A stretch of DNA of 64,000 bases from NCBI GenBank assembly GCA_964434735.1, contig CAYSWK010000002.1, forward strand, positions 634-64,633, in the 5' to 3' direction. The translations under genes were made by a program, and so were the position numbers. The notes under the pieces were generated by a model. It was given only the letters and a program-made list of their open reading frames with translations, had not been told where the DNA came from and made no database searches. Shown here piece by piece: positions 21,222 through 42,768 of the stretch (its first letter is position 1; every line of letters starts with the position of its first letter). Origin of the DNA: Candidatus Micrarchaeota archaeon (GTDB taxonomy: Archaea; Micrarchaeota; Micrarchaeia; Anstonellales; Bilamarchaeaceae).

Positions 21222-21674
21222 ATGATTAAGAAAGGACAAGTATCTACGGAATACCTGATTATTCTGGCCGTAGTATTAGTTATTGCATTAGTGGTTGTCT
21301 TCTTGGTAACCCAAAGCAGCGGCGGAGCATCAGCAACTTTGCAAACACAAAGTCAAACAGCATGGCAAAGCGCACAGCCCTTGGCAGTTACGGCAGTCAG
21401 TGCTTCAGGAACAACGTTTGGAGTTACTATGAAAAACAATGACCTCCAAAAAGTCACTGTAACCGGAGTCACAACTGATTCAACGGATGATTACGCAGTT
21501 TCAACAACCTTCAACCCTGGCGAAGAAAAATCAGTCACGTTAACACTCTCGTCAGATTGTGGTGCATTGGGAACACAGCTTCGTGTCCAAAACGTATCGA
21601 TTACCTACACGAAAGGATCAACCGCAGGCCTTAAGGAAACAAGCGGCTCACCCTTAATCGTAACGTGTGGATAA
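21222..21674 (+). CDS. archaeal type IV pilin-like protein (class III signal peptide, DUF361-like)
   Basis: MIKKGQVSTEYLIILAVVLVIALVVVFLV: KG-Q processing motif with acidic residue at +5 and hydrophobic helix, then Thr/Ser-rich beta-rich domain. Confidence 0.55.
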   Translation: MIKKGQVSTEYLIILAVVLVIALVVVFLVTQSSGGASATLQTQSQTAWQSAQPLAVTAVSASGTTFGVTMKNNDLQKVTVTGVTTDSTDDYAVSTTFNPGEEKSVTLTLSSDCGALGTQLRVQNVSITYTKGSTAGLKETSGSPLIVTCG

Positions 21675-22469: not shown

Positions 22470-23260
22470 TGTATCTCACCCATAACCTGTTCACGGACAG
22501 ATTGAAGCTCCTGCTGATAATATGCAAGATAATGCTCGTCTTCACTTAAAACGTCCTCACGGACACGCGCAATGCGTGCAAAAACTTCCTCGTTTTTTAC
22601 CCCATATCCTTTCAAAAGGGATTCCATATCCGCAAGCTCAAAAAGAACCCATGCCCTCTTTTTTACCTCCCTTAATTCAGAACGTGAGAGCTGGCCGCTT
22701 ACAAACTGGGTTCGCATGGATTGCATTTCAAGAAGCCTCGTTTTCATCTCGTTAGTTGGATAACCGTGCGAAGACAGATAATCGATTCTGCCTTGTGCAG
22801 ATTGTTCCCACTTTTGAATTCGCTCGATGTGGAGTGCGTTAAGCCTGCGTGATGCATCTGCAATGCACGAACCATACGTATGGTCTACGGCGTCAACATT
22901 CGTTGAGATTTCGGCCTTCGCGTCGCCCAAATCTTTGTAGGTATCCTCGTGTTTAAGATGATTAAACTGGTGCGCAAGAAGCTGCACTTCGCGTACAAAT
23001 AAAAGTCCAACGTCGATAAACTGCTGACGGTTTCTTGATGCCGCCGCCACATGAAGTGCATCAAGCGTCTTTTGACCTTGCGGAGTTACCTCATCAAACG
23101 TAATGTTTCGTTCATGAATGACGGTAAAAATAGGGTCAACAATGCCCAATGCACACTTTGCAATGCCCGTATGGTATTCCAACTCATCCTGGCTAAAAAC
23201 AAGGCAAGCTAAAAGCATAAAAACAACAAAGGATTTAGAGATGCGAGACATAATGAACAC
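22466..23260 (-). CDS. secreted hypothetical protein
   Basis: signal peptide MFIMSRISKSFVVFMLLACLVFSQ, coiled/charged body. Confidence 0.4.
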   Translation of the reverse strand: MFIMSRISKSFVVFMLLACLVFSQDELEYHTGIAKCALGIVDPIFTVIHERNITFDEVTPQGQKTLDALHVAAASRNRQQFIDVGLLFVREVQLLAHQFNHLKHEDTYKDLGDAKAEISTNVDAVDHTYGSCIADASRRLNALHIERIQKWEQSAQGRIDYLSSHGYPTNEMKTRLLEMQSMRTQFVSGQLSRSELREVKKRAWVLFELADMESLLKGYGVKNEEVFARIARVREDVLSEDEHYLAYYQQELQSVREQVMGEIQ

Positions 23261-23666
23261 AAAACGGCGAACTTTAAATCAGTTGCGGGTACGCGGGCAA
23301 AGCCAGGCCGAATTCCTCATCATATTTTCCCTTGCAATTTTCATGGTGTTTATCTTAAGCGTCCTGTACAATGCATGGAATCTGACGGTAACCCAAACAA
23401 AACAGTCTTTTCGGGCCGCGGAAATAGCAAACACCGTTGCGTTCGCAATAAACAATGCGTACTTCTCAGGCAATGGAACCGGAGTAAACATCAGTATACC
23501 CTCCCAGGAAGGGCTGACAATAGTAATTGATGAAAAAACCGTAACCGTAAATTCATCAGGCGCAGTAAGCCAATCCCAAATAATCGCAGGACCCGTTGAT
23601 GCGACACGCATTTCTTCAGGCCAACGGTTTTTCTACAACAGGGACGGGACAATAGAGGTGTCATGA
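23241..23666 (+). CDS. pilin-like protein (class III signal peptide)
   Basis: LRVRGQSQAEFLIIFSLAIFMVFILSVL: RG-Q motif, E at +5, hydrophobic helix; start moved to ATG 23241 to avoid overlap with 22466-23260. Confidence 0.5.
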   Translation: MRDIMNTKRRTLNQLRVRGQSQAEFLIIFSLAIFMVFILSVLYNAWNLTVTQTKQSFRAAEIANTVAFAINNAYFSGNGTGVNISIPSQEGLTIVIDEKTVTVNSSGAVSQSQIIAGPVDATRISSGQRFFYNRDGTIEVS

Positions 23667-24266
23667 GTGGATCCGTTAAAAGTTTTGAGTCGCGAATTTT
23701 GGGTTTCGTGTGTTAAACTTCCGCATAAGGATTCAAAATGCAAAAAACAGAACGCAAGATACAAAACTGAAAACATTCACAGATCAACTCGCGGCCAAAT
23801 GTGGTCAACGGATTTTGCAGTATCATTAACCATTTTTTCCATTTCGTTATTGCTTTTTTTCGGCCTTTTCCAACAGGTGACAACCCGTTTTGACAACTGG
23901 TACACCTACCAGGTTATCCAGTACCATGCGCATATTTTTTCAAATCAGCTTCTCCTTACGCCTGGAACGCCTGCAAATTGGGAAACAAGAGGGATCAATT
24001 CAAGCACCCACCTTGGCCTTGTAAATGAAAGAAATGTGCTCGTGCCTTCAAAACTTGATTCCTTTTTCAACGAAAGCGCATATGACATAATACGGGAGAA
24101 AAACAACTTCCCCTACCAATTTACCATCAACGTGACTTCGCTTTCACGCAATGAAACAATCCTTGTTCTTGGCAATGAGACTGACAGCAACAACTCGGCG
24201 CCCGTGCAACGGATGGCGCTTTTGAATGACACCCCTGTATGGGTAATCATAAAGGTGTGGAAATGA
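23667..24266 (+). CDS. pilin-like protein
   Basis: GTG start abutting upstream stop; STRGQMWSTDFAVSLTIFSISLLLFFGLF motif (RG-Q, D at +6). Confidence 0.4.
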   Translation: MDPLKVLSREFWVSCVKLPHKDSKCKKQNARYKTENIHRSTRGQMWSTDFAVSLTIFSISLLLFFGLFQQVTTRFDNWYTYQVIQYHAHIFSNQLLLTPGTPANWETRGINSSTHLGLVNERNVLVPSKLDSFFNESAYDIIREKNNFPYQFTINVTSLSRNETILVLGNETDSNNSAPVQRMALLNDTPVWVIIKVWK

Positions 24267-24685
24267 CTGATCCGTGGAACGTTTTGAGAGTACCCCGGCA
24301 CAAGGGAATCATTTTCAGCATCGACAGCATCATAAGCCTACTCCTTTTCCTTATTGCGCTTGTCATCATCTCCGGTTCATTGGTTCCGAATACTCCTCGA
24401 ACTACGAGTATCAAGGATCTTGCATACGACATCCTCAGCGTACTGGATGCAAGCGATAGGTACGAACAATACATTGAAGGGGACTCAAGCGCAATTCGCG
24501 ACCTCCTCACCAATACCCCGTCAAACGTATGTATGGATATACAAATTACTGAATATTTAGGAAACACGAGCGTCGTAAGCAAGCCAAACTGCGGAGGATT
24601 TACGCGTGAACTCCAGTCTACGTACAGCTCATTCGCGTATGGCGGAAAATATTATACCGTGCAATTGTTAGGGTGGGAACGATGA
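24239..24685 (+). CDS. pilin-like protein
   Basis: RHKGIIFSIDSIISLLLFLIALVIISG (KG then hydrophobic helix); overlaps neighbours (operon). Confidence 0.4.
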   Translation: MGNHKGVEMTDPWNVLRVPRHKGIIFSIDSIISLLLFLIALVIISGSLVPNTPRTTSIKDLAYDILSVLDASDRYEQYIEGDSSAIRDLLTNTPSNVCMDIQITEYLGNTSVVSKPNCGGFTRELQSTYSSFAYGGKYYTVQLLGWER

Positions 24686-25476
24686 GCACCAAAAAAGGAT
24701 TTTTCTATTCAGTTATGATGATTGCGATCATCTCCATCCTTGCAGGGTTGTGGCTTGATTCCCAGCACGCAAGCAACCGGCTTGAACGCGCCTTTGAATC
24801 GCAGGAAGGCGCACTCTTTTTGGCATATACAAAAAATGAGCTGTTTCAGGACCTCGCAGAAGTTACGCAAGTACGCGTACATTCTGACGGCACCCGGATA
24901 AAAATAAACGGCTCGCTGCCAGCATACAACCCTTCGCAGGCACTTGAAGATTATAACACCTTTATCCAAAACTGGACTTCAAAAAGCCACATAAACCTGA
25001 CCCTTGACACGTCAGCACTGGAAGACGGAGATACGGACATAATGATATACAACACAACCGTGCGGGCAAACTACAGCGATACGCCTTCGAACATATCCCT
25101 TTCAAACCTGACAACCGACTACCTTGTCATAAACATAAGTGCGCCCTACGAACGGCTTGAGGTAGATGATTTTTCATTTGGCGCAGGCAGCACCAACCTT
25201 ACGTTTGTATATACTGATTCAAACGGAACGGTTGAAGAAAACGGAATGGTGAACCTTGCAAATTCAAACACGGCAGAAGTGACGTACGTGAACCACAAAT
25301 CAATAATTATACGCATCATACCTCAAAAAAGGCTTGAGATACTCAGCAATGTTTCAGATGGAACGTGGGAAATCGAATACAACAAAAGCCCCGATGATAT
25401 AGGCGTTATGGGATACCCTGTCGAACTAGAAATGTTCTATACCCAGGTAACCTATAATGGCGGAGTCTACAAATAA
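24673..25476 (+). CDS. pilin-like protein with N-glycosylation-sequon-rich domain
   Basis: MSTKKGFFYSVMMIAIISILAGLWL; body has many N-x-S/T sequons (NYSD, NISL, NLTT, NISA, NLTF, NGTV). Confidence 0.4.
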   Translation: MGTMSTKKGFFYSVMMIAIISILAGLWLDSQHASNRLERAFESQEGALFLAYTKNELFQDLAEVTQVRVHSDGTRIKINGSLPAYNPSQALEDYNTFIQNWTSKSHINLTLDTSALEDGDTDIMIYNTTVRANYSDTPSNISLSNLTTDYLVINISAPYERLEVDDFSFGAGSTNLTFVYTDSNGTVEENGMVNLANSNTAEVTYVNHKSIIIRIIPQKRLEILSNVSDGTWEIEYNKSPDDIGVMGYPVELEMFYTQVTYNGGVYK

Positions 25477-25521: not shown

Positions 25522-26085
25522 ATGAAACGGGAGGAACTCCTTGTGCTTGGGTTAGTTTGTCTTATCCTGGTACTCCTAAGCATAGTGTCATTTTTCACAA
25601 ATAATGTGGATGAAGGTAGCGCACGCCAATTTGTCCTTGAAGACCTCAAATCCCGTTTTCCGTATGCGGATGTTGAAATCATAGAGTCAAAATCTGCAGT
25701 AAATAACGAAGGCAAAGAATACTTCTCGATAAAAGCAAAAGTAACTACTGAGGCACAAAGCGCATGCCCGCTTCGAAGCCATTACTATTACAGCTATCCT
25801 GAGCAAAATTTTGTACCGGCACCCGCAGACCACATAACAACCCCCGAATGCAAAGTATGCAAGGAAACGCCCTGCATCATCGCATTCCCTGAAGAAGCGA
25901 CAATCGCATCACACACGTTGAGCGGAACGGAACAAGTAAAGGAGTTTGTAAACTCCCATCCCTACTCCAATCATTCGGTTACGAACAACGGCTCGGTTTT
26001 CATAGTTTCCTGGTTTGATACGGAACAAGGATATAATGTAACAATAAGCCGTTCAGGAAAAGTATTGTCCGTTTTACCAAGGTGA
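25522..26085 (+). CDS. membrane-anchored hypothetical protein
   Basis: N-terminal TM (LLVLGLVCLILVLLSIVSFF), Cys-containing extracellular domain. Confidence 0.35.
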   Translation: MKREELLVLGLVCLILVLLSIVSFFTNNVDEGSARQFVLEDLKSRFPYADVEIIESKSAVNNEGKEYFSIKAKVTTEAQSACPLRSHYYYSYPEQNFVPAPADHITTPECKVCKETPCIIAFPEEATIASHTLSGTEQVKEFVNSHPYSNHSVTNNGSVFIVSWFDTEQGYNVTISRSGKVLSVLPR

Positions 26086-27404: not shown

Positions 27405-28379
27405 TTATGTTATCGAAACCATGCTTCCTACTACCAAAAGTGCAAACCAGAATGCCGCCAGCGCAAACGCAGCAACAAGCGGGAAATACTTCAACCCATA
27501 CAACGGCTTACCTGTTGAAATGACGCCGTTAAGTATGCTTGAAAGGAGGGCAGTTATGATAAGTGAAATGATTGCCGCAAACCTCATCTCTTCAACCGTA
27601 ACGGGCAATTTCCCAGCAAAAATAGGAACCGACTTGCTGATGGAACCGATGCTGCTTATACCTGATTGCTCCTGAATGGAAGAAAAAAGGTTTAAGAAAC
27701 TCACTGAAACCGCAAGCAAGAAAGGCATGACGATAATGACAATAAATGCAAGGAAAATAGTGTATGATTGAGTCTGCATAACCAGCTCCTGCTTGAGCTC
27801 GCGGATTCTTCGTATTTCCTCCGCGTTTGCGAGCAAAAGCTTTGCAAGCTGTCCGCCGCTTCGTGATGCTTTTGAGAACAAATCAATAGAGCGCTTGAAA
27901 ACTACGGAATCAAACCTACCTTCAAGCATGCGCAACACTTCCACGAGTGAGGTACGCGCACTGACCATAGCACCAACCGAATGAATCTCATAGTACAATC
28001 CCTTAAATTCCTCACGGTTGGCACGCATAAATGCATCATAGGGAGTCATACCTGCACGTAAATTCGATGCAGTAATAGTGAGGAATTCAGGAAGCACCTT
28101 TTCAACCTGTTCCGTACGGGAAACCTGCTTGAAGAAAAGAGAAACGTATTGAAGGAAGGTAAGGAATAAAAGTGCGGCAACAAACATTCCTGCTGCAATT
28201 AGGAGCGTTTTTGTTACAAGATATGCCCCAAGAGAGATAAGGAGGGAAAAGAAGGGAATGAAAAAAATCCGCTTGCCGATCCACTGGTCGGCATCCTCAT
28301 ATATACCCAAACGGACAAAACGGGCCGACGTGCTTGCAAGGAATTTTTTATTGATTCGGCCAAGGTTTCTAAACGCCAT
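27405..28379 (-). CDS. FlaJ/TadC-like membrane protein (T2SS-F domain)
   Basis: 324 aa, TM helices flanking cytoplasmic helical domain; in operon with FlaI-like ATPase. Confidence 0.5.
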   Translation of the reverse strand: MAFRNLGRINKKFLASTSARFVRLGIYEDADQWIGKRIFFIPFFSLLISLGAYLVTKTLLIAAGMFVAALLFLTFLQYVSLFFKQVSRTEQVEKVLPEFLTITASNLRAGMTPYDAFMRANREEFKGLYYEIHSVGAMVSARTSLVEVLRMLEGRFDSVVFKRSIDLFSKASRSGGQLAKLLLANAEEIRRIRELKQELVMQTQSYTIFLAFIVIIVMPFLLAVSVSFLNLFSSIQEQSGISSIGSISKSVPIFAGKLPVTVEEMRFAAIISLIITALLSSILNGVISTGKPLYGLKYFPLVAAFALAAFWFALLVVGSMVSIT

Positions 28380-28380
28380 A

Positions 28381-29358
28381 TTATCCCCCTATTACCTCAG
28401 GCCTGCTTGTTGAAACAAAGCCGATGATCGCAATTTGCATAAATACGCTGCCGCCAAGCAACAAATAGATAGTCGTTGCATCAATCCCAACTCCGCTAAA
28501 TGAAGAAAGCAAAATCAAAAACGTAATTCCTAATGAAGGTACGGCTGCCGCAATCATCATGTAAATGAGCATGATGAAATTAAGGCTTGCCGAATAAGCC
28601 TTGATGTCTGCAAGAAGCTTTTTTTCAAGGGCGTCTATGACGCTTACCAATGAAACATTTACCTTTGCACCACTTTCAAGCGAATTGACAACCTGCCACA
28701 GACTACGCTTAAGGAATTCATTCTTGCTTTCGATGGCAAGATGCTTAAGGCTTGCTTTTTCCGAGTATCCCGACTCAATTTTTCTTACCGCAGTGTTAAA
28801 GTCACGTGAAACATACCCGTAATCGCCAATGCTGATGTTGCGTATTGCCTCGAAAAGGGTAAGGCCGCTTTCAATCCCCATCGTGACCTCACGCAATGCA
28901 AAAAGAAGATCCTTGTTCTGCTTTGCAATAATTTGATTGGCAATAATCATAGGGTATACTAGGTGAAGTAAGAAAAAAAGAAAAATGAACCCTGCTGAAA
29001 AAAGAATGCTTCGTAAAACCAAAAATTGCAAAGGGTTAAGCTGCAATTCAAAAAATGACGTTTCTGCAACAGATACAAAACCCGCATTTTTGCTTACAAG
29101 CGAAAGCACAACTGGCTCCGAAGTAAGGGGAGTTATGACAAAAAGAACAAGAAAAATAAGAATGGCAAAAAAGAACCCGTAAAGGCAGGATGAAAGAAAC
29201 GAAGCAGCGGCATACTGCTTTGCAGTAGTATGAATTTCAAGGTACTCAAGCTGGAAATCAAGTTCGGGGAAAAACTTAAGAAGACGATTAAACGGAAGGC
29301 GCATCACCCAGGTTCCCTTAAGCCGGGCAGGGTCAACCAAAAGAAAGGGTATTTTCAT
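28381..29358 (-). CDS. FlaJ/TadB-like membrane protein (T2SS-F domain)
   Basis: second paralogous platform protein; start placed at MKIPFLL (ATG 29356-29358) directly after ATPase stop. Confidence 0.5.
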   Translation of the reverse strand: MKIPFLLVDPARLKGTWVMRLPFNRLLKFFPELDFQLEYLEIHTTAKQYAAASFLSSCLYGFFFAILIFLVLFVITPLTSEPVVLSLVSKNAGFVSVAETSFFELQLNPLQFLVLRSILFSAGFIFLFFLLHLVYPMIIANQIIAKQNKDLLFALREVTMGIESGLTLFEAIRNISIGDYGYVSRDFNTAVRKIESGYSEKASLKHLAIESKNEFLKRSLWQVVNSLESGAKVNVSLVSVIDALEKKLLADIKAYSASLNFIMLIYMMIAAAVPSLGITFLILLSSFSGVGIDATTIYLLLGGSVFMQIAIIGFVSTSRPEVIGG

Positions 29359-29359
29359 A

Positions 29360-31066
29360 TTATACCAGCTTCTTTGCGCTCTGGTTCTTGCGGGCGGCCT
29401 CGATAACCTCATCGGGGGAAAGATAGTACTTCTTTATGATTTCACCGACCTGGTTGATGTCCTCAATCTTATTTTTCACCATCCATTCAAGAATGCCCTT
29501 TTTCTCCTTCTGGTCATCATAAATTTCCTTCTCAGTCATACCTGTGTGAAGGTTTATGTTTTCAATATAACGATGAGGAGGTTTTACCATTTGGAACTCG
29601 TCCTGCCTTGCACGCCAGACAAACACACGATTTATTTCCGGGCCGTTTGCGCCAGGTATAACTTCAGAAATTTCAAGCGTCCTTCTTAAGTTTCTTCTTC
29701 GGTCACGGAACTGCACCATGACCAAGTGGATGTCTTCAACTTCAGCAGGAGGGATTTCTATTGGAGGCTCAGTGAGACGCTTAAGCATCTGGCTTCCCGT
29801 ATCGGCGTGCATGGTCGCGTAAACTGAATGCCCCGTGTGCATTGCCTCGAACAGGACCTCGGCTTCGCGTTTTCTTCGCACTTCGCCCATGATAATGCGG
29901 TCAGGGCGCATACGTAATGCATTAACTACCAAGTCAAGCATCGAAACCTCACCCAAACCTTCAGAATTTGCCGCACGAGTTGCCATAGGAACCCAGTTCC
30001 ATTGATAATCTGGAAGAAGCAGTTCACGCGTATCCTCAATGGTTACAATACGCTGCTGAGGAGGGATAAGCGCCAATACACCGTTAAGTGCCGACGTCTT
30101 GCCGCTTGCGGTGCCTCCCCCTACGAGGACGTTTGCTTCATAATGTATTGCCTGCCATAAAAGCGCCGCCATATCGGTTGACATGGTTTTTTGCAAACCG
30201 ATCATGTGAATAATCGTCCAGGGGTTTCGCGCAAAAAGACGCAACGTAATCGTATTGCCTGCGGTTGAAATGGGAAACAACGTTGCATTGACACGGTCAC
30301 CAGTTTGAAGGTGCGCATCTAAAATAGGATTAAGAGTATTGATCTGCTTTCCGACCCTTCGAGCGATCTGTGCGGAATAATTCTCGATTTCATCCTCGTT
30401 TTCCGCCTTGAGGCTTGTCTGCATCCACCCCAATTTACGGTGGTACACTGCAAGCGTGTTCTTGCTTGAATTGGCAACGATTTCTTCAAGCCAATTATCT
30501 GCAATAAGCAAGTCCAATTTTCCAAGCCCGTACATGTCACGGAAAAGCCATGACGCGCATGCGCTCAATGCGTCCCCTTGCGCAAGCGGTTTAAGTGCAT
30601 CAAGGATTGTTGCAAATTTTTCCTTTTTTGAATCCTGACCCTTTCGTGCACGTTCCTCGTTTAAAATAGCAATTTGCTTTTTGAGCGAATTAAGGTAAAG
30701 TCTCGTATAGTATGAGATGCTTGGCAACTCAACAAAATAACGCTTTGCGCCTTCTGCCTCATACAGGTGCGCCTTGGCAACAGGGACACCTTCGTCTTTT
30801 ACATCATACGTATCGATTGCCTTGGTCTTTGCGGGCAAGGCGGAATCGTCCTCAACAGGCGGCTTGATATTACGTATAAAGGGGCGCGAAAAAAAATTAA
30901 GCGGATACACAAGTTCAAGTGCGCCTTCTTTTTCAAGCACACGCGCAATTGATTCAACAAGTGAAAAAGGAGTCTTGGTTTGCTTTGCAATGGCGACAAG
31001 CGTGATGCGCTTTTGCCCTTTACAGGCGGTTATAACTTCATCAACCTTGGTTTTGTAGTCTGCCAT
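29360..31066 (-). CDS. type IV filament assembly ATPase (FlaI/TadA family), second copy
   Basis: Walker A VLVGGGTASGKTSALNGVLALIPP, Walker B RIIMGEVRR, His box VYATMHAD; long N-terminal extension. Confidence 0.8.
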   Translation of the reverse strand: MADYKTKVDEVITACKGQKRITLVAIAKQTKTPFSLVESIARVLEKEGALELVYPLNFFSRPFIRNIKPPVEDDSALPAKTKAIDTYDVKDEGVPVAKAHLYEAEGAKRYFVELPSISYYTRLYLNSLKKQIAILNEERARKGQDSKKEKFATILDALKPLAQGDALSACASWLFRDMYGLGKLDLLIADNWLEEIVANSSKNTLAVYHRKLGWMQTSLKAENEDEIENYSAQIARRVGKQINTLNPILDAHLQTGDRVNATLFPISTAGNTITLRLFARNPWTIIHMIGLQKTMSTDMAALLWQAIHYEANVLVGGGTASGKTSALNGVLALIPPQQRIVTIEDTRELLLPDYQWNWVPMATRAANSEGLGEVSMLDLVVNALRMRPDRIIMGEVRRKREAEVLFEAMHTGHSVYATMHADTGSQMLKRLTEPPIEIPPAEVEDIHLVMVQFRDRRRNLRRTLEISEVIPGANGPEINRVFVWRARQDEFQMVKPPHRYIENINLHTGMTEKEIYDDQKEKKGILEWMVKNKIEDINQVGEIIKKYYLSPDEVIEAARKNQSAKKLV

Positions 31067-31727
31067 CGAATGTGCTTGCTGTTGTGATGTTTATATTTGT
31101 TACGCATTCTTGAAAATTAAAAAAATACAAGTCTGATTGCACTAGGTGTACAATAGCCAGCAATTTCAAAAAGAAATTGCAAGTTCAAGTTAACTTTGTT
31201 AACAGTCCTTTCATTTTTTATAAGCAAAAATGCAAGAGTAATTGAACTTCGTTCAAAACCCTTCCATTTTTGTGAGCAAAAATGCAAGAGGCAGGATATT
31301 CACTGTTTCCCGCACCCTGCAGTCTGCATCCAGAAATTACTGGAAACAGGTAACTGGCTGCTGGAAACTGATTTGAACCTGCGTAGTCACTAAGACACCA
31401 AACATCTCCGGCAATTTGACAACGTCAAAAAGCCTCCTGAATCTGGCACGTTTGACCGGGCTCCGCCACTCTTGCGTTTACTTATGTTTTCCGAATACAA
31501 CGTAGCGGCCTATTCCAAGAAAGTACTTAGAGTTGGCCTTGCTCGCACTTTCGTGCGAGAGCTTTTGCAAGAGCTTGGGTTCCGAAGGAACCTGGCGGGC
31601 ATTGACGCGCACGTCAACCAAACCGCCACTCTTGCGTGGTATTATGTTCTTCTTATGCAACATCCGTTGATTGAACATGCTACTCTTGCCTCGTTACTCT
31701 TATAAATATGACAAGTGAGAGAAACGC
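31067..31727. repeat. repeat-dense divergent intergenic region (7-mer GCAAGAG/CTCTTGC x6, tandem 30-mers, duplicated 14-mer ccgccactcttgcg)
   Basis: gcaagag at 31232, 31284, 31567; ctcttgc at 31469, 31629, 31684; tandem repeat tc(c/a)ttttt.t.agcaaaaatgcaagag at 31205-31237 and 31259-31290; ccgccactcttgcg at 31463-31476 and 31623-31636. Confidence 0.6.
31436..31476 (-). pseudogene. tRNA-like 5' segment (acceptor + D-arm + anticodon stem/loop of a tRNA-Leu-like sequence, anticodon CAG) without a contiguous 3' half
   Basis: minus strand GCAAGAG TG GCG GAGCCCGGTCAAA CGT G CCAGA TTCAGGA mirrors the 5' half of the tRNA-Leu at 48714-48839; a T-arm-like GCAGGTTCAAATC lies 54 nt further downstream on the same (minus) strand (plus coords 31370-31382) and a CTCTTGCA acceptor-3'-like element at 31283-31290. 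Confidence 0.35.
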
Positions 31728-32468
31728 ATGGCATCCCGTGATACAACTCCCGCATATGTACCAAAAACCATCGAAAGAATCAAAAGCGGAATTCCCGGAT
31801 TTGACCAATTGATCCAGGGGGGATTTGTAAATCATTCAACAACGCTTGTACGCGGTGGAACGGGAACGGGGAAAACCCTTTTTTGCCTCCAGTATTTATA
31901 CAAGGGAATACGTGAACATAATGAACCGGGCGTATTCATCTCATTTGCAGAAACTGAGGAAGAAATCATACAGCACGGCAACAGCTTTGGCTGGGATCTT
32001 GAAGAATTAATAAAAAAGAAACAATTTGCGATCATACAATATGCGCCGCACGAAATCGCCCACGTCATGGAAGAGGGGGGCGGAAGCGTCCGTGACACCA
32101 TCGAGTCCCTTGGCGCAAAACGCCTTGTCATCGATTCCATAACTGCATACTCACTTTTATTTGAAAATGAATACAAGGCAGATGAATCAATATTGGACCT
32201 CTTCCAGCTGCTCAAAAAATGGGGATGTACTTCATTAGTAACTTCAGAATATCCTGTATATGTGGATCAAAGCACCCCGGAAAGGCTTGGGTTTCTTACC
32301 GATGGAATACTTAACCTCTATTATTTTAGGGTAAACAACAAAAGAATACGTGGGCTTGAAGTGCTCAAAATGCGGGATACGCACCAGGAGAATACCATCC
32401 GTTCGATGGAAGTAAGTAAGACGGGAATTATAATTGGCAAACCGCTTTCATTAAGAGGTCAAGCATGA
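31728..32468 (+). CDS. FlaH/ArlH-like KaiC/RecA-superfamily ATPase
   Basis: GIPGFDQLIQGGFVNHSTTLVRGGTGTGKTLFCLQYLYKG Walker A in KaiC-like fold, ~246 aa, as in archaellum FlaH. Confidence 0.6.
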   Translation: MASRDTTPAYVPKTIERIKSGIPGFDQLIQGGFVNHSTTLVRGGTGTGKTLFCLQYLYKGIREHNEPGVFISFAETEEEIIQHGNSFGWDLEELIKKKQFAIIQYAPHEIAHVMEEGGGSVRDTIESLGAKRLVIDSITAYSLLFENEYKADESILDLFQLLKKWGCTSLVTSEYPVYVDQSTPERLGFLTDGILNLYYFRVNNKRIRGLEVLKMRDTHQENTIRSMEVSKTGIIIGKPLSLRGQA

Positions 32469-34489
32469 AAAAAGGACAAACCGCGGTTGAATTTCTTTTG
32501 ATATTTGCAGCCGTGCTTCTATTGGTGTTTATAGCAACCTCGGTAAACCGCGAACAAATTTCTACCATCAATACTCAAAAAATAAACACACAAGCGCAAA
32601 GCGCAGTTGAGGAAATTGCTGCGGCTTCCCAGCAAGTCTATGCACAAGGGGAAGGCGCAAAAAAAAGAATATTCATCATTGTCCCTGAAGGATATGATCC
32701 TGAAAGTTCTTCCCTTTCGAATCGGACGATTAAGATGAGGGTCCGTGAAACCGATTATACGTACGCAACGGATTTTGATATTTACGGATCAGTCCCACGG
32801 TACTACGGCGGCCAATGGCTCTGGGTTATCTCTGAAGGCACGTCAGTACGAATTAGCGATGCCCTCTTCAGGGTCGTTCCCGTTTCCATAAACAATATCA
32901 TGTCACAAAATGCAACCGACCAAGAAACGTTTACGGTTGAAAGCCTCTCAAACACGCCAATCAACGTCACGCTTGACCCTGTATGGAGCAATTCTGTCAG
33001 CCTGGATCTAAGCACTAATTCCTTTTCGCTCAATGCGTCAGAAACGCAAGTAGTTACTGTTACATTTGAATCCCCCGTGAACGCAATCGGCTTCCAATCA
33101 GGAAGCATTTTTGCACAAGCAACAAACGGAACAACAAATGACAGTCTTTCCCTTCCCATAACCATCGAAGTAGTCGGAACATACCAGGATAATTCGCCCG
33201 CACTTACGGTTGACCCTTCCATCTGGGAGGAGAGCCTCAATTTAAATGAAAGCAAAACGGCAACATTTACGGTGTGCACAAACACCGTTACAACTGTTCC
33301 TTCAGTCCAATTCATACCCTCTTCGGGAAACCCCGGGTCGTGGATAAGCGGCACAAGCGCACTTGGACCTTTGATTGAATCAGAATGCCAAGACAAGGAA
33401 CTTACCGTTACGGGCGCATCAAACGCAAGTTCAGGAATTTACATAGGATACATTAATGTGTCAGGAAGCGAAAATGCCTCGGACATCATTGTTACTATTA
33501 TGCAATTGACAGGGGCAAACGATTCACTAGGCCCCATTGTCACAGGGATCAGTTTAAGCGACTCAGATATCCTTGCAGGTGAAAACTTCAGCATCACCGC
33601 AACGGGCGATGATTCAACAACGGGCAATTCAAGCATTGCAAGCTGCGAAATACAAATGAACGGCGGTAGCTGGCAAGCTATGGAAGCACAGGACGGAAAT
33701 TATAATGAAGTGAGTGAAGGAGTCGAACTTAGTTTCATCATGAACACTGCTTCAAGCAACACTGCAGGAATCAGGTGCACGGATACAGCTGGAAATACCG
33801 GCAGCATATATGAGTATGAATTCAGTATAATGAAAAATATCCTCTTCATACGAAAAACGAGCGCAACTCAAACCTCCGAAGAACAATGGATGACGTTCCT
33901 TAATACGTACGTTTCCGGCCTGGGGTATTCCTGGGATTATGACGATTATGAAGAAGCGGACCTTGATGGAGATCTTGAAACAATCGAACTTTACAAAGTA
34001 GTTATTATGTCAGAATGGCAGCACCCGTCTGCAGTTGAAAATGAACTTGAAGACTATATGCAAGCGGGCGGAAGAGTTATCCATTTTGGGGGCGCACTGC
34101 AGCATGGAGTTGCAGATCTTGGGTTTGCATCAGGAAACTATAACCCTACTACTGAACGAAGAATATACGTCCATGAGGATTTGGCACACTACGTAACAAG
34201 CGGATTTTCATACGGCAGTATCCAGGTCCTTTCAAGCAATGACCAAATGTACCGCGGAGCAAACGGCGATTTCATAAGCGGAAGAGCCTCAGGGCAAGGG
34301 TACTACTTTATTTCACTCTCAAGCGGACAAACCGGATACCAGCATGAAACAATAGGAAGCGAGGCATTACGCGGGTCTGGAGGTTATTGGTGCTGGGGAG
34401 TTACGCGTCCGGACAAATTGAATTCAAACGGGCGAACGTTCGTAACCCGCATTATAGACTGGAGCATCCAGCAATCACAAATAGAATAA
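32465..34489 (+). CDS. giant pilin-like surface protein (674 aa) with class III signal peptide
   Basis: MKKGQTAVEFLLIFAAVLLLVFIATSV (KG-Q, E at +5) overlapping FlaH-like stop; Thr/Ser/Asn-rich body with many N-x-S/T sequons. Confidence 0.55.
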   Translation: MKKGQTAVEFLLIFAAVLLLVFIATSVNREQISTINTQKINTQAQSAVEEIAAASQQVYAQGEGAKKRIFIIVPEGYDPESSSLSNRTIKMRVRETDYTYATDFDIYGSVPRYYGGQWLWVISEGTSVRISDALFRVVPVSINNIMSQNATDQETFTVESLSNTPINVTLDPVWSNSVSLDLSTNSFSLNASETQVVTVTFESPVNAIGFQSGSIFAQATNGTTNDSLSLPITIEVVGTYQDNSPALTVDPSIWEESLNLNESKTATFTVCTNTVTTVPSVQFIPSSGNPGSWISGTSALGPLIESECQDKELTVTGASNASSGIYIGYINVSGSENASDIIVTIMQLTGANDSLGPIVTGISLSDSDILAGENFSITATGDDSTTGNSSIASCEIQMNGGSWQAMEAQDGNYNEVSEGVELSFIMNTASSNTAGIRCTDTAGNTGSIYEYEFSIMKNILFIRKTSATQTSEEQWMTFLNTYVSGLGYSWDYDDYEEADLDGDLETIELYKVVIMSEWQHPSAVENELEDYMQAGGRVIHFGGALQHGVADLGFASGNYNPTTERRIYVHEDLAHYVTSGFSYGSIQVLSSNDQMYRGANGDFISGRASGQGYYFISLSSGQTGYQHETIGSEALRGSGGYWCWGVTRPDKLNSNGRTFVTRIIDWSIQQSQIE

Positions 34490-34494
34490 AAAAA

Positions 34495-36243
34495 TTAGCG
34501 GGCAATTGCCTTTTTCTGACAATCGAATGGAAGACGTTTACACGTCGTAGTACCTCGAATGCAGGCACTTTTGCCTGATATGATAAGGGTCTTGCTCGCA
34601 CCGAATCTTCCAAGAACAGCATTAAGGTTTGCATCCGTGCACGTTTTCCCTGCAAGGGATTCTTTGGGCTTTGGTTTTTCCTTAACAGTTTTTATGGCTT
34701 TAGCGAGTGTAGGCACGGAAATAGAAACGGGCGGCGGTGCCACGGTTCCTGCATCTGGTTTTGCAGGAAGCACTTGTGCATCAACTTGTCGAGGCATTTC
34801 CGTAGGAACCTCCTTAGCAACATGCGTGCCTGAATCAACCGTAACAACAACGGGAGTTAAAACTGGGATAACCACTTCGTTCTTTGAAGAACGTAAAGAA
34901 CTAATTCCTAACCCTATTACCGTTCCAAGTAAAACAACTCCTGCAACAAGGCCTACGTTTACAAGCGTATTTTGAGGTTGAGGCTTTGCATGGAAAATTA
35001 AGGGTTCGCCTAAAACAATATTCGCTAAATTGCCTGCATTTACCAAAGCAATACGTAATTGAGCTAATTCACTTGCAGTTTTTTTACCATTCAGACCTAA
35101 AAAGCCGTAAGTAAGTTCGCTAAGTGCCTTATTGCCTTTTCCTACAAAATCGATAGCGATAGTATTATCGTCATTATTTTGCGAAATTGCAACGTATGAT
35201 ACATTTCGTGCTTCAAGAACTCCTGAACGATTAAGCACGTCATAAAGTTTTTGTTCGCACCTCTTTTTTTGCCGTTGTCGCCTCATACCTTTTGCAATTG
35301 CTCTCTGATCGATAGTAAGTCCAAGCTCTGCGTCAAGCGCTGCATCAAGTGAGACGTGCACACCAATCGAATCGCGATCTAAAATTTTACTTTGTTTTTT
35401 ATTTAATTCTTTAATCTCCGCTTCTTTTTCTTTCGATGAAAGAACAGCGTTTGATGAGATTTCCGCTTTCTTTTGATCAAAATATGCGTTAACTTTTTGA
35501 CGAAGTTCTTCCTCATTCATGGAAAATAATTCCCCAAGACGATTCTGATATGCGTACTCTTGTTGAAAAAATGCGCGCATTTGATAGATAGAAACTTTTT
35601 TTTGCGAAGAAACAGGTATTGTTTCCAAAATTTCATAAGCAGCATCGAGAACCGCTTCAGCAAATACCTCATCAACTTTATTTGAGACTAATTTAAGAAC
35701 GGTTATTGCTGCCCGTTTTTTTTCACTCAAAGATGATGAATCAGACGTCATGATTTCATATAGTGCATCGACATACTCCTTGTTTGTAAGTACTGGAGTA
35801 AAATCAACTGATACAATGGGAACATCGGGATCTTCAATACCGTCTCCGTCCTCAGTATCGAAACCGGCAGGCAAATCAGAGGTACGTAGAACTAATGCAG
35901 GCTGCCCGAAAGTAAGCGTCTTTGCATTTTCATCTGCAGGTCCGAAAAGCGGATCTACAGTTCCACCAATAAGCTCGACCGCGTCATCATCAACTTCGTG
36001 TTCAGGATCTGGAATGGTAGGTTGCGCATCAAGTGATAATTCAGGTACATCCTTACCTGGAACTGGCAACGACTCACTGAGAACTGACTGCTGGGAACCG
36101 GAAACCGGCTGCTGTGCACTGGGTGCTGACTGCTCGGTACCTGATGCCGGCTGCCCGGTGCTGGCTGCACCCGGAGTAACCTTAGGCTTAGGGGGCACTT
36201 CCCCGAAAGGATCATCTTCAAGGTCTGATTGAGCTATTGCCAT
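34495..36243 (-). CDS. ORFan membrane protein, paralog A (582 aa): acidic N-terminal domain, single TM, C-terminal 4-Cys module
   Basis: N-term MAIAQSDLEDDPFGEVPPKPKV and C-term KTCTDANLNAVLGRFGASKTLIISGKSACIRGTTTCKRLPFDCQKKAIAR shared with 36322-39258; TM VGLVAGVVLLGTVIGLGISSL. Confidence 0.6.
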   Translation of the reverse strand: MAIAQSDLEDDPFGEVPPKPKVTPGAASTGQPASGTEQSAPSAQQPVSGSQQSVLSESLPVPGKDVPELSLDAQPTIPDPEHEVDDDAVELIGGTVDPLFGPADENAKTLTFGQPALVLRTSDLPAGFDTEDGDGIEDPDVPIVSVDFTPVLTNKEYVDALYEIMTSDSSSLSEKKRAAITVLKLVSNKVDEVFAEAVLDAAYEILETIPVSSQKKVSIYQMRAFFQQEYAYQNRLGELFSMNEEELRQKVNAYFDQKKAEISSNAVLSSKEKEAEIKELNKKQSKILDRDSIGVHVSLDAALDAELGLTIDQRAIAKGMRRQRQKKRCEQKLYDVLNRSGVLEARNVSYVAISQNNDDNTIAIDFVGKGNKALSELTYGFLGLNGKKTASELAQLRIALVNAGNLANIVLGEPLIFHAKPQPQNTLVNVGLVAGVVLLGTVIGLGISSLRSSKNEVVIPVLTPVVVTVDSGTHVAKEVPTEMPRQVDAQVLPAKPDAGTVAPPPVSISVPTLAKAIKTVKEKPKPKESLAGKTCTDANLNAVLGRFGASKTLIISGKSACIRGTTTCKRLPFDCQKKAIAR

Positions 36244-36290
36244 CGGATTACCTGTTATATATTATGGTATTTCGTATATTTAAACATATG
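36244..36290 (-). promoter_or_regulatory. TATA-box promoter of paralog A (duplicated block)
   Basis: coding-strand tttaaatatacgaaataccataatatataacaggtaatccgATG; near-identical 45-nt block at 39259-39305. Confidence 0.55.
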
Positions 36291-36321
36291 CATAACTCGT
36301 AATTTAGGAAAAAAATAAAAA

Positions 36322-39258
36322 TTAGCGGGCAATTACCTGTCTTGGGCAACTAAACGGGAGACGTTTACACGTCGTAGTACCTCGAATACATGCGTTTTTG
36401 TCTAATACCATGAGGGTCTTGCCCGCACCGAATCCTCCAAGGGCGCGATTAAGATTTGCATCAGTACACGTTTTCCCTGCAAGGGGTTCTTCGGGCTTTG
36501 GTTTTTCCACAACCGATTTTACGACCTTTTTAGGAGCAGGTTTAGATGAATCTTCATCACATTTTGATGAATCAAGCCTAACTCGTTTTGCAAGTTCTGC
36601 CACCTCATAATTGTCAGCCATGTTTCCCTTAGGACACGTTTCATCAATGAGTTTTTTGATAACGCGTTTTGCGCCTTCAGTATCTTTTGCTTCAAGGTAC
36701 TTTTCAGCTGCAGTGAACATATTTCCCGCGTTTTCTGCTTTTTTTGCAGCCGTTAAAACAGGATCTTCTTTTATTCCTGCATCCGCAGAACCGGAAACTG
36801 GAGACTGAGAATCCGCAACGGGTCGCGAGGAGTCTATTGCTACTCCCGCATCACGTACGGATGCATCTTGCGCTTGACGCACTTGTTGAACTGCTGCAAC
36901 TGCTTGCTCTTGTTGTGAAGATTCATTGTTTCCAAAATACTTGACCACTCCAATCACAAGACTTGCTGCAAGCGCAAGGCCAGAAAGCACGGCAAGCGGG
37001 CCAGTCAATGATATTTTTGGTTTTTGGCGAGGGCGCGACCCCATGCGCTCTGCAAGCTCCCTGAATTCCAAAGCGTCAATTTCAACATCAGAACTTTCGC
37101 CCATCCGCTGCGCAAGCCTTCTTTGACTGTCATCGGTAACAACCTCAAGTACCCGTTTATTCGCAGCATCGACAACTGCGTATCGTTCACGATCGGTATC
37201 AACTCGTACGACCCGTACTCGCCGGGTTCCTTCCGATAGGGAACTTGCCGCATCTCGAAGCGGCCTGACAGGAACTTCTTCATCGCCAATTTGTGCAACG
37301 TGCGCGTCCTTTTCTTCAAACAACCGTTTAACCTGGGCACGCATTTCAGGATATTCTTCACCAAATAAATCCTCAAAATATCGATTCATTATTCTAAGAA
37401 CTGCAAGCGGGAAGGTTTCAGGATTGAACTTTGGTAAAAGTGCAGCACGAATGAATGCTTTTTGAACAGAAATTGGAAGATCGCCCCCTTCAACAAATGA
37501 ACTGAATAAAGGGTCTCGTTCGCTCTTCCTCCATGAAGCAAGTTGAGTGAATACGGTTTCAGGAACCAAAACGGCTGCTTCTGTAGGTTGCCCTGAACCA
37601 ACAAGATAGGTATAAACTTCACCTTCAATGGCCGCATTAAGAACATCATCACCAAAGGATGAGGCTGATAACTTTTCAAGAACCGCCCTGCCGAACCTCA
37701 CGCGAATGTCGTTTGCCTCACCTTTCAAACCTTCAGAAACAAGGTTCGCGATTTTAACGCCCATGTAATGAAGAAGCTGCGTTTGCTCATCTGATGAAAG
37801 CTGTGTGGGAGCCGTATCTGATGAAAGCGTTCTAGGAGCAAGATAGATGCTCCTAAAAGACTCAATCAAATGATCTACGATAGTTTCAAGTTCTTCTGGA
37901 GTTCTTTGTACATGCGAAATTCGTTGTGAAACACGTAAATCAACCTCACTTTTTGCAAGTCTAAGGTAAGAAGAGTCTCGATTTACTAAAAGCCGTGAAG
38001 CATCAACGGCTTCTGGTCTTAAATCAAGAATAGCAGAAATTGTTGCACCCAATGTGGTTGGATCGGCAACCCTACGAAGTGCAATCAGCTGCTCGCTGGA
38101 AAGGGCTTCAAGAAGATTATCTTTTAAAGGATGCGACTGCAATCCGTCTGCAACCCCCATCTGCTCTTCACCGGTCAGATGTAAAAGTACATCAACAAGA
38201 AATGCGGCATTGCGCGTAGTCTGGAATTGCTCAAGTGCAAGAATAAGTTCAGGAGAAACAGTAAGGCCAGAAGGAAGTTCAAGACCCAATGAAACGGCCA
38301 GCCTGATGGGAGTGCGTGCCATCAAAGGCGACGTCGTTTGAGGCGGCTCAGGGATAGGACGTTTTACGGTTGTTGCATCATCACGTGGGGGTGCCCGTGC
38401 AGCAGGAACAGTCTCGGCGGTTGGACTGACTGCCCGAGGGTTAGTAGGTTCGCCATCAAGTTCAACATCATCCCATTCAAGGGTTTGCGTCCCCTCGTGT
38501 GATGGAAATGCAGCGATATCATCTTCATCTGCAGGTTCTATCCCATCACCGTCAGCATCAACTTCCAGAATAGGAGTTACACCTGTAACTTCCGACCTGC
38601 TGGGTTCACGGCCTGCAAGTGCATCCGCCAGTTCATCTTGAGGCAAAGATACAATGACATTAGGAGCTTCATCGCTTGCGCCCTCAGGAATGCTATGAGT
38701 GGAAGTCGTTGCGCGTGGATCATTGCCATATTCGATAGTATCTGCTCTGGAAGCTGCGGGAGCTTCGACTGCAGCGGGTTCTTCTTCATCATTAAAATCA
38801 AATGGATTTCTTGCAAGTCCGACTGATGATTCTGATACTACTAATATAGGTTGTCCTCGAACAAGCGTCTTTGCATTTTGATCAGCAGGTCCGGAAGATG
38901 GAGTATGCTCACCACCAACAACATGTTCATCTGCTTCGTGTTCAAGACCTTCATCTGTTTCTCCTAAAACCTGACTGGGGGTTACGGGTAAAGTGCTTTG
39001 AGAAGGAAGTGGGGCAGATGCCGGTGTTTTAACTGAAGAACTTTCAGAATCATCTATGTCAGTACGTTGCGCATCAAGTAATGGTTCAGGTGCATCCTTA
39101 CCAGGAACTGACAACGGGGAATCGGAAACCGGCTGCACTGTGTCCGATGCTGAAACGGGTGCTTGAGCTACAGGCTTAGCTGCTGCGCGGGTAACTTTAG
39201 GCTTAGGGGGTACTTCCCCGAAAAGATCATCTTCAAGTTCTGAGTTTTTTATTGCCAT
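36322..39258 (-). CDS. ORFan membrane protein, paralog B (978 aa)
   Basis: N-term MAIKNSELEDDLFGEVPPKPKV; TM LAVLSGLALAASLVIGVVKYF; C-term KTCTDANLNRALGGFGAGKTLMVLDKNACIRGTTTCKRLPFSCPRQVIAR; 3' coding DNA ~85% identical to paralog A. Confidence 0.6.
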   Translation of the reverse strand: MAIKNSELEDDLFGEVPPKPKVTRAAAKPVAQAPVSASDTVQPVSDSPLSVPGKDAPEPLLDAQRTDIDDSESSSVKTPASAPLPSQSTLPVTPSQVLGETDEGLEHEADEHVVGGEHTPSSGPADQNAKTLVRGQPILVVSESSVGLARNPFDFNDEEEPAAVEAPAASRADTIEYGNDPRATTSTHSIPEGASDEAPNVIVSLPQDELADALAGREPSRSEVTGVTPILEVDADGDGIEPADEDDIAAFPSHEGTQTLEWDDVELDGEPTNPRAVSPTAETVPAARAPPRDDATTVKRPIPEPPQTTSPLMARTPIRLAVSLGLELPSGLTVSPELILALEQFQTTRNAAFLVDVLLHLTGEEQMGVADGLQSHPLKDNLLEALSSEQLIALRRVADPTTLGATISAILDLRPEAVDASRLLVNRDSSYLRLAKSEVDLRVSQRISHVQRTPEELETIVDHLIESFRSIYLAPRTLSSDTAPTQLSSDEQTQLLHYMGVKIANLVSEGLKGEANDIRVRFGRAVLEKLSASSFGDDVLNAAIEGEVYTYLVGSGQPTEAAVLVPETVFTQLASWRKSERDPLFSSFVEGGDLPISVQKAFIRAALLPKFNPETFPLAVLRIMNRYFEDLFGEEYPEMRAQVKRLFEEKDAHVAQIGDEEVPVRPLRDAASSLSEGTRRVRVVRVDTDRERYAVVDAANKRVLEVVTDDSQRRLAQRMGESSDVEIDALEFRELAERMGSRPRQKPKISLTGPLAVLSGLALAASLVIGVVKYFGNNESSQQEQAVAAVQQVRQAQDASVRDAGVAIDSSRPVADSQSPVSGSADAGIKEDPVLTAAKKAENAGNMFTAAEKYLEAKDTEGAKRVIKKLIDETCPKGNMADNYEVAELAKRVRLDSSKCDEDSSKPAPKKVVKSVVEKPKPEEPLAGKTCTDANLNRALGGFGAGKTLMVLDKNACIRGTTTCKRLPFSCPRQVIAR

Positions 39259-39305
39259 CGGATTACCTGTTATATATTATGGTATTTCGTATATTTAAAT
39301 ACATG
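39259..39305 (-). promoter_or_regulatory. TATA-box promoter of paralog B (duplicate of 36244-36290)
   Basis: cggattacctgttatatattatggtatttcgtatatttaaa block identical to that upstream of paralog A. Confidence 0.55.
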
Positions 39306-39306
39306 T

Positions 39307-42759: not shown

Positions 42760-42768
42760 CTATTGAAA

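Follow-up and report, generated by a model that had tools for sequence, protein, structure and literature searches.

Archaeal type IV pili of the Epd-like group share with bacterial Tad pili the signature of two contiguous platform genes, each with a single T2SSF domain (PMC6668835), and a 'system 1' with two platform genes has been reported in methanogens and DPANN archaea (bioRxiv 10.64898/2026.04.22.720090). At archaeal type IV pilus loci other than those of archaella, KaiC-family ATPases have been reported, as have two tadC genes, VWA proteins and large adhesins (PMC4858521), and Epd loci have been reported to contain a FlaH-like secondary ATPase (PMC6668835). Among bacterial filaments, a precedent for modular pilins is PilB, which carries a VWA module (PMC8179133), and TadG is a tip backbone with a C-terminal modular domain (PMC12075869). 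Here we describe a locus in a 64,000-nucleotide stretch of contig CAYSWK010000002.1 from a Candidatus Micrarchaeota archaeon (hereafter the window), in which a ten-gene type IV pilus operon of the Micrarchaeota (DPANN), Epd/Tad-like and with a split platform, is probably present in rearranged form. The gene set is that of a complete type IV filament, with an assembly ATPase, a split platform and six pilins: one major, four minor and one modular.

Five of the genes concerned lie at positions 27405-34489. The minus strand encodes a 568-aa assembly ATPase of the VirB11/TadA/GspE2 family (29360-31066; Pfam T2SSE, 5.5e-32) and two platform proteins with one T2SSF domain each, TadC1 (28381-29358; 3.7e-13) and the 324-aa TadC2, a TadB/TadC-like half platform (27405-28379; 6.7e-14). 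On the plus strand are a 246-aa single-domain KaiC-family ATPase (31728-32468; Pfam KaiC PF06745, 2.9e-57) and a giant modular pilin-like protein of 674 aa (32465-34489; Pfam Class_IIIsignal PF04021, 2.6e-7). An initial annotation of this DNA, made from the sequence alone, had described these five open reading frames (ORFs), and all are present at its coordinates; its suggestion that the KaiC-like gene and the giant are translationally coupled is likewise borne out, as the stop codon of the former and the start of the latter overlap in ATGA, with a Shine-Dalgarno-like AAGAGGT upstream. Direct reading of the sequence also shows that the minus-strand ATPase, TadC1 and TadC2 genes are tightly coupled through TAA-n-ATG junctions. 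Because such a junction places an ATG at 29358, one base past the ATPase stop, this is the likely start of TadC1, rather than the 29412 start of the 343-aa ORF; alignment of TadC1 to the first platform genes of two related operons (L002 and L005, described below) begins at residue 20.

The same annotation had noted no typical archaellin genes and had overlooked one major and four minor pilin genes just outside the coordinates it considered, on the plus strand 2-10 kb away, so the locus is not short of filament subunits. An all-frame scan of the window for real ORFs with a [KR]-[GA] site close to the N-terminus and hydrophobic sequence behind it returned exactly six proteins with class III signals: the giant, a 150-aa major pilin and the products of four consecutive minor-pilin genes. 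The PilA-like major pilin (21222-21674, with a listed ORF start at 21168) begins MIKKG/QVSTEYLIILAVV..., where the slash marks the predicted cleavage site, and thus has a Flp/DUF361-like G/xxxxEY site (G/QVSTEY) and a mature length of ~128 aa. The signals are of the DUF361 type, with Q at +1 and E at +5. Both the major pilin (9.3e-6) and the giant (2.6e-7) pass the gathering score of PF04021, while in the minor pilins the motif is recognizable only on inspection by eye; the Pfam TadE and Flp models matched none of the window proteins scanned.

The four minor pilins were paired with relatives by BLASTP. The first, m1 (23253-23666, start inferred, with a listed ORF start at 23118), has the class III-like N-terminus RVRG/QSQAEFLIIF... 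and matches the gene directly after the giant in L002 at 3e-12. It is followed by m2 (23667-24266; STRG/QMWSTDF...), which has a weak DUF7287 match and pairs with the second minor-pilin gene of L005 (3e-15) and L002 (7e-14), and by m3 (24239-24685; RHKG/IIFSIDS...), which pairs with the third (5e-24 in L002, 2e-14 in L005). The last, m4 (24682-25476, with a listed ORF start at 24673; MSTKKG/FFYSV...), pairs with the fourth, at 6e-8 in L005 (286 aa) and 3e-4 in L002 (277 aa). The major pilin shares 54% identity with the 150-aa pilin at the end of the L002 operon and 43-46% with two L005 pilins. Orthologs of PilA are found in 29 related loci, those of m2 in 30 and those of m3 in 31. m4 is rich in N-x-S/T sequons, with 12 against the 3.8 +/- 1.6 expected from its composition, which is the strongest enrichment in the locus.

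A profile search with an alignment of the ATPase, limited to one genome per species, recovered 52 loci, 48 of them titled as Micrarchaeota or as a lineage of that phylum (Anstonellaceae, Bilamarchaeaceae, 'ainarchaeum') and four from unclassified archaeal metagenome-assembled genomes. The ATPases of these loci are 47-56% identical to that of the window, and in four partial matches the best segment reaches 59-67%. Operon structure was counted in 34 loci, those in which 6.5 kb or more of sequence precedes the ATPase. In 23 of the 34, genes for the KaiC-family protein and the giant lie 5' of the ATPase in the same orientation, and BLAST detects between two and four of the minor-pilin genes in the interval; where downstream sequence exists, TadC1, TadC2 and one to four copies of PilA follow the ATPase. 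The result is a collinear ten-gene order: KaiC, giant, m1-m4, ATPase, TadC1, TadC2, PilA. A clear example is L002, the contig of the giant P0003, in which a single operon encodes KaiC (241 aa), a VWA-bearing giant (747 aa), four small proteins (125, 168, 133 and 277 aa), T2SSE (571 aa), two T2SSF proteins (300 and 343 aa) and a class III pilin (150 aa). In L005 these genes stand in another order, and L007 has an overlapping KaiC-giant pair. The remaining 11 loci comprise eight in a divergent ATPase subclade (47-49% identity) together with L008, L038/L059-type and L058, and their components are dispersed or undetectably divergent.

All ten genes of the window show one-to-one BLASTP orthology with the operons of these relatives. 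The genes that flank them (FEN1, helicase, PdxT, M24 peptidase and PIN) are 45-60% identical to the genes that flank the operon in Micrarchaeota loci, and because these housekeeping neighbors match, the window can be assigned to a Micrarchaeota chromosome. In the window the pilus operon has been split where it stands, leaving PilA, m1-m4, an inverted block of ATPase, TadC1 and TadC2, and the KaiC-giant pair as separate parts, with every ORF intact. The closest ATPase relatives, L008 and L058 (56%), are dispersed like the window: the L008 ATPase stands alone among housekeeping genes, and L058 retains giant-m1-m4-ATPase without adjacent KaiC and TadC. Taken with the window, these two loci suggest that the operon has fragmented in a sub-lineage.

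Against structures the ATPase ranks Archaeoglobus fulgidus GspE (2oap, 3.6e-70) above FlaI (4ii7, 2e-58) and CpaF (4e-40). Its best NCBIfam match is FlaI (the NF058587 equivalog model), at 280 bits against a cutoff of 550, so that the protein falls outside ArlI orthology as that model defines it; the BasE model scores 128 bits (cutoff 1000). By BLASTP it is 54% identical to its one-to-one orthologs in the related operons. Residues 1-146 form an extension that does not align to the FlaI or GspE structures and is conserved, with many invariant columns, in the Micrarchaeota orthologs; judged by eye, its start looks like a small winged-helix-like domain. Variable N-terminal domains have been reported for archaeal type IV filament ATPases (bioRxiv 10.64898/2026.04.22.720090), and an extension of ~146 aa fits this pattern. 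The platform is encoded beside the ATPase by two contiguous genes (324 and ~325 aa, one T2SSF domain each) rather than by a single two-domain ArlJ; TadC2 shares 42% identity with the product of the second platform gene in L002 and L005, and TadC1 36-40% with that of the first.

The giant combines a class III signal with a predicted pilin module and additional C-terminal modules, as modular type IV pilins do. Its signal, MKKG/QTAVEF, gives the PF04021 match at residues 2-26. In an AlphaFold (AF2) prediction built on a six-sequence alignment, an alpha-1 helix (7-61) packs on a beta domain (66-138) with a predicted local distance difference test score of ~75-89, forming the predicted pilin module; a confident immunoglobulin (Ig)-like sandwich (142-237) follows, and two sandwiches of moderate confidence extend to ~464. 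With this full-length model Foldseek found only generic tandem Ig/ASH arrays in the PDB, and residues 466-674 of the model were unusable. A separate model of the head, the last 219 residues (456-674), is confident and matches a ThuA/GATase1-like fold, whereas the head sequence has no Pfam match even at an E value of 10 and no PDB sequence match. Across 25 aligned heads, columns W20, G80, G190 and D210 are invariant and no Cys or His is conserved, which leaves no Cys-His-Glu triad as in active amidotransferases; the head is predicted to be non-catalytic. The statement that the protein is full of N-glycosylation sites goes too far: there is a modest enrichment (13 N-x-S/T against 8.6 +/- 2.4 expected from composition), confined to residues 86-388, and the head has none.

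Orthologous giants at the same operon position end in different heads, namely VWA in 21 of 29, RTX in three and the ThuA-like head in five. The VWA-type giants carry the DxSxS motif of a metal ion-dependent adhesion site (MIDAS), such as DRSGS in P0003. Since the N-terminal 460 aa are as similar across head types (38-40%, with 38% to VWA-type proteins) as within the ThuA type (34%), we regard the head as an exchangeable module, and the 674-residue protein is most likely a tip pilin with an exchangeable binding head. With its pilin module, Ig-like domains and head, its mostly VWA-bearing orthologs and its co-operonic minor pilins, it fits the option of an adhesive filament with a giant tip protein, which the initial annotation had listed among three. 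Relatives of the whole giant in a word-indexed protein database numbered six (seven matches with the protein itself), one of them from a Candidatus Micrarchaeota metagenome-assembled genome, and a scan of the species-genome contigs with the giant as single query returned no relative. For the head alone, the word-index search returned nothing with a single sequence and one protein with a 25-sequence profile, while an exhaustive HMMER search found the head in 71 clusters (50% identity), most of them proteins of 635-870 aa with class III N-termini. A few of these clusters are bacterial-looking multi-repeat surface proteins. In P0058, P0060, P0063, P0068, P0072 and P0073 the ThuA-like head occurs, sometimes in two or three copies, in proteins of 780-1430 aa without class III signals, one of which has a Sec-type signal (MKRAVLGIALFVAALLATPTVNAQ). 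The module is shared with these other surface proteins, which are probably bacterial.

The companion ATPase is a clear member of the KaiC family, at 194 bits against a PF06745 cutoff of 26.6 and with Walker A GTGTGKT and Walker B LVIDS. NCBIfam KaiC models score 117-183 bits (KaiC_arch_3, 145), whereas the ArlH model (arCOG04148/NF052589) gives 41.3 bits against a cutoff of 215 and FlaH PRK06067 48.9 against 194. Among structures the same preference is seen for KaiC (8zn5, 9.5e-64, 218 bits) and the single-domain PH0186 (5e-37) over Methanocaldococcus jannaschii FlaH (4wia, E 2.8e-3, ~20 bits). On these scores the protein is not an ortholog of ArlH/FlaH. The FlaH motif claimed for it, a Walker A with an hhhhDS Walker B, is general to the KaiC family; the latter has been stressed in work on ArlH (PMC5019145), and since it is also present in KaiC itself in the 8zn5 alignment it is not diagnostic of ArlH. 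A FlaH-like ATPase outside an archaellum is no anomaly either, as KaiC-family and FlaH-like ATPases have already been reported in type IV pilus and Epd loci (PMC4858521, PMC6668835). The protein is also not of clock-type architecture, being a single domain of 246 aa rather than a duplicated CI-CII, with FAET in place of FEES in the 8zn5 alignment. This SFAET motif (approximately residues 72-76) replaces the first catalytic Glu of KaiC by Ala, as SFAE[ST], in four of four orthologs compared.

Its association with the pilus genes is close. The protein shares 48-59% identity with its operon-linked counterparts in L002, L005 and L007, and a KaiC gene lies directly 5' of the giant in 24 loci. Seventeen of these 24 pairs have a placeable giant start, and in 14 the two genes overlap (usually by 8-29 nt) or are separated by at most 11 nt.

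Between the divergent ATPase and KaiC genes lies a putative control region (31067-31727), which was read directly from the sequence. A TATA-like TTATAAATA is found at 31700-31708, ~20 nt 5' of the KaiC ATG, and AAATATAAA (the reverse complement of ~31090-31098) stands 5' of the ATPase ATG. A repeat finder detected two 32-nt direct repeats at 31207-31238 and 31259-31290, 52 nt apart and each with the palindrome CATTTTT-N7-AAAAATG; placed between two putative promoters, they look like candidate tandem operator sites. Rfam gave nothing above threshold on the window or on the intergenic region, and the sub-threshold hairpin-type matches seen on both strands at 31206-31290 merely reflect these hairpins. 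Two further direct repeats of 39 nt, 77% identical, are found at 31463-31501 and 31623-31661, within a region (31440-31700, plus strand) whose predicted RNA fold has z = -3.0 against shuffles; the non-coding stretch is ~580 bp long. In the Logan copy of the locus (L001) an ORF of 73-77 codons is called in this region, without support.

Several neighboring features were recorded in the window, which has a G+C content of ~44% and in which a tRNA scan found no tRNA. A 187-aa ORF (25522-26085, plus strand) adjoins m4 downstream; its product has an N-terminal transmembrane anchor that is not of class III type and several Cys residues, and it has no counterpart among the 52 related loci. A second, stand-alone type IV ATPase (443 aa; T2SSE, 2.3e-36) overlaps a T2SSF platform gene (519 aa) at 11365-14237 on the plus strand, without adjacent pilins or KaiC; it too fails the FlaI model (200 against a cutoff of 550) and shares only 34% identity with the main ATPase family. 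A run of four large ORFs (582, 978, 1150 and 456 aa; 34495-44139, minus strand) encodes low-complexity, acidic, Pro/Ala-rich proteins that match no Pfam family. The 582- and 978-aa proteins are paralogs with a common N-terminus (MAI..S.LEDD.FGEVPPKPKVT), one transmembrane segment close to the C-terminus and a tail rich in Cys (GKTCTDANLN...ACIRGTTTCKRLPF.C). The four ORFs stand between the giant and the M24 peptidase and PIN genes. In L002 those two genes are immediate neighbors of the operon, so that the four ORFs have the look of a lineage-specific insertion. A reading of the surroundings as a defense island was dropped, as PADLOC gave no defense-system match beyond a weak P-loop match.

From the gene set a mechanism can be proposed. 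A prepilin peptidase encoded elsewhere would cleave the pilins after [KR]-G/A, and a hexameric ATPase acting on a TadC1/TadC2 heterodimeric platform would pull them from the membrane. The four minor pilins and the giant would form a priming complex that ends at the pilus tip, by analogy with the tips of type IVa pili, type II secretion systems (T2SS) and Tad pili (PMC8179133, PMC12075869), with the 150-aa major pilin polymerizing below it. The Ig-like stalk would hold the head off the filament, where it could bind a ligand on a surface or host cell; for the ThuA-like head this ligand is possibly a glycan, and for an episymbiont the target of adhesion may be the host envelope. The KaiC-family protein would serve as a cytoplasmic accessory ATPase, most likely as a ring, docked on the assembly ATPase or gating it by way of nucleotide binding or autophosphorylation. 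Such a ring would be analogous, not orthologous, to ArlH, which in its ATP-bound form binds ArlI and is released by autophosphorylation (PMC5019145, PMC8978795). This accessory role is the least certain part of the proposal, because KaiC is absent from a third of the related loci. A bolder combination, in which the head (VWA, ThuA-like or RTX) is the determinant of host or surface recognition and the KaiC protein, encoded first in the operon and coupled in translation to the tip pilin, times or gates a non-rotary pilus motor as a stoichiometric component, as an independent or ancestral-type counterpart of ArlH, is conceivable, but we hold it to be doubtful.

The archaellum-like framing of the initial annotation implies another reading, in which homologs of FlaI, FlaJ and FlaH make a minimalist non-canonical archaellum, a rotary motility apparatus, with the 674-aa protein as filament or hook subunit. 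That FlaI is the best NCBIfam match of the ATPase (280 bits), and that an ArlH-sized single-domain protein of KaiC/RecA fold is encoded beside it, speak for such a reading, yet when FlaH/ArlH, FlaI/ArlI and ArlJ models were applied all scores fell below their cutoffs, including the equivalog scores of 280 against 550 for FlaI and 41 against 215 for ArlH. GspE surpasses FlaI for the ATPase, the FlaH structure scores 20 bits against 218 for KaiC, and the platform is split between two genes where ArlJ is one polypeptide. As the annotation had itself remarked, FlaF, FlaG, FlaX, FlaCDE and archaellins are missing: neither Arch_flagellin, archaellin, ArlF/G nor ArlX/CDE was seen among the window ORFs scanned, nor within 10 kb of the related ATPases by BLAST with the window proteins and a class III scan of 16 loci, where the other ORFs are unannotated, although all archaellated archaea have seven core components (PMC4858521). 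With ordinary pilins encoded nearby, an archaellum is highly improbable. A further alternative is a bindosome-like or T2SS-like device for display or secretion, in which the class III signal would serve insertion and processing and the giant would be an anchored binder or a cargo on a short pseudopilus. The Sulfolobus bindosome does place class III signals on solute-binding proteins, folds like that of the head (ThuA/GATase1-like, GIFT-like) are found in sugar-related proteins, and four minor pilins with a large cap resemble the GspH-K set of the T2SS. The 128 bits that the ATPase scores with BasE, however, fall far short of the cutoff of 1000, in most genomes the operon closes with a dedicated, conserved 150-aa major pilin, present once or up to four times, most orthologs carry the VWA head typical of pilus adhesins, and the giant has a full predicted pilin module with a long alpha-1 helix; we regard a display or secretion device as quite unlikely.

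For the KaiC-like gene on its own, the alternative is a general signaling hub or a transcription-level regulator that shares a promoter with the pilus genes without physically partnering the pilus ATPase. KaiC-like ATPases are widespread in archaea and, according to work cited in PMC8978795, have been proposed as hubs of signal transduction; the top sequence similarity of the protein is to clock-type KaiC domains, 11 of the 34 related loci lack it, and L016 and L017 have a second KaiC gene nearby. Against this, the gene is the first of the operon in 23 of the 34 loci, in many overlapping the next pilus gene; it stays with the pilus genes where their order is shuffled, as in L005 and the window; and the locus encodes neither a KaiB/KaiA-like partner nor a DNA-binding domain, with no KaiB-like gene in any annotated locus. 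A role as hub or regulator thus appears unlikely. The pilus reading has its own difficulties, which should be set against it. It draws on gene content and sequence, and the 'Epd-like/system 1' clade is a probable placement, based on the split platform and the signal type; the ATPase was ranked by bit score against PDB and NCBIfam. The tip location of the giant comes from analogy only, and its middle Ig-like domains are modeled at moderate confidence. With ~128 mature residues the major pilin is longer than the very short Epd/Flp pilins, no Peptidase_A24 match for a prepilin peptidase was found among the scanned ORFs of the 64 kb window, and the distribution of the operon over three or four transcription units could mean decay. 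Finally, KaiC is absent from 11 of 34 loci, some with components dispersed or too divergent to detect, and is dispensable for at least some of these pili; its Ala-for-Glu replacement suggests altered ATPase or kinase chemistry, and its enzymology is uncertain.

Split TadC, KaiC-family ATPases, VWA proteins and large class III adhesins were predicted in earlier surveys (PMC4858521, PMC6668835, bioRxiv 10.64898/2026.04.22.720090), and modular and TadG-type tip pilins are already established in bacteria. What appears to be undescribed is a phylum-wide ten-gene operon headed by KaiC, the swapping of heads on an archaeal modular pilin, and the ThuA-like head family. Micrarchaeota and other DPANN archaea attach to host archaea, and how hosts are recognized and held is largely unexplained; a phylum-wide pilus operon with a putative tip head swapped between lineages is an obvious candidate for a device of attachment and specificity. 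The same operon is a clean example, supplied by nature, of a KaiC-family ATPase in a non-archaellar type IV machine, which could inform the role and origin of ArlH, a protein still said to be of unknown source (PMC9087265). For annotation, a set of 'FlaI + FlaJ + FlaH-like' genes should not be equated with an archaellum unless archaellins and stator genes are present.

Compared with known systems, the locus resembles the ArlH-ArlI-ArlJ motor of the archaellum in encoding a single-domain protein of RecA/KaiC fold together with a VirB11-family ATPase and a T2SSF platform, and plausibly in the same logic of a motor-modulating ring; it is set apart by the failure of all three Arl models, the split platform and the lack of any archaellin, stator or scaffold genes seen. 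With the Tad/Flp pilus (CpaF/TadA, TadB, TadC, Flp, TadE/F/G) it shares the split platform, a G/xxxxEY site in the major pilin, minor pilins with a large pseudopilin comparable to TadG, whose C-terminal VWA or modular domain belongs to the tip backbone (PMC12075869), a proposed adhesion role and similarity of the ATPase to CpaF (4e-40). It lacks secretin, TadZ and TadD, as befits an archaeal envelope, has a KaiC-like protein where Tad has the ParA/MinD-like TadZ, and leaves the TadE and Flp Pfam models unmatched. The giant is built like the modular pilins of Streptococcus sanguinis (PilB, a pilin with vWA; PilC, a pilin with a lectin) and like CofB of enterotoxigenic Escherichia coli, with an N-terminal pilin module and grafted, presumably tip-exposed modules, including in most Micrarchaeota orthologs a VWA domain with the DxSxS MIDAS; unlike them it is archaeal (the survey in PMC8179133 is bacterial only), has three Ig-like spacers and ends in a ThuA/GATase1-like head that belongs to no Pfam family. 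From the Epd pilus of Methanococcus maripaludis and system 1 (clade 1 of Makarova 2016; Denise 2019; bioRxiv 10.64898/2026.04.22.720090) it differs in that its secondary ATPase is a canonical KaiC-family protein rather than arCOG04148 FlaH or FleN/MinD, its major pilin keeps a globular domain where the Epd pilin is very short, no EppA peptidase is present in the window, and the adhesin is itself a pilin with swappable heads rather than DUF2341- or PilY-like. With those same systems, which are reported in DPANN, it shares an ATPase with two adjacent single-T2SSF genes, a secondary RecA-fold ATPase in the locus, DUF361-type signals (Q at +1, E at +5), and a multi-gene operon that combines several minor pilins with large adhesin-like proteins of class III.

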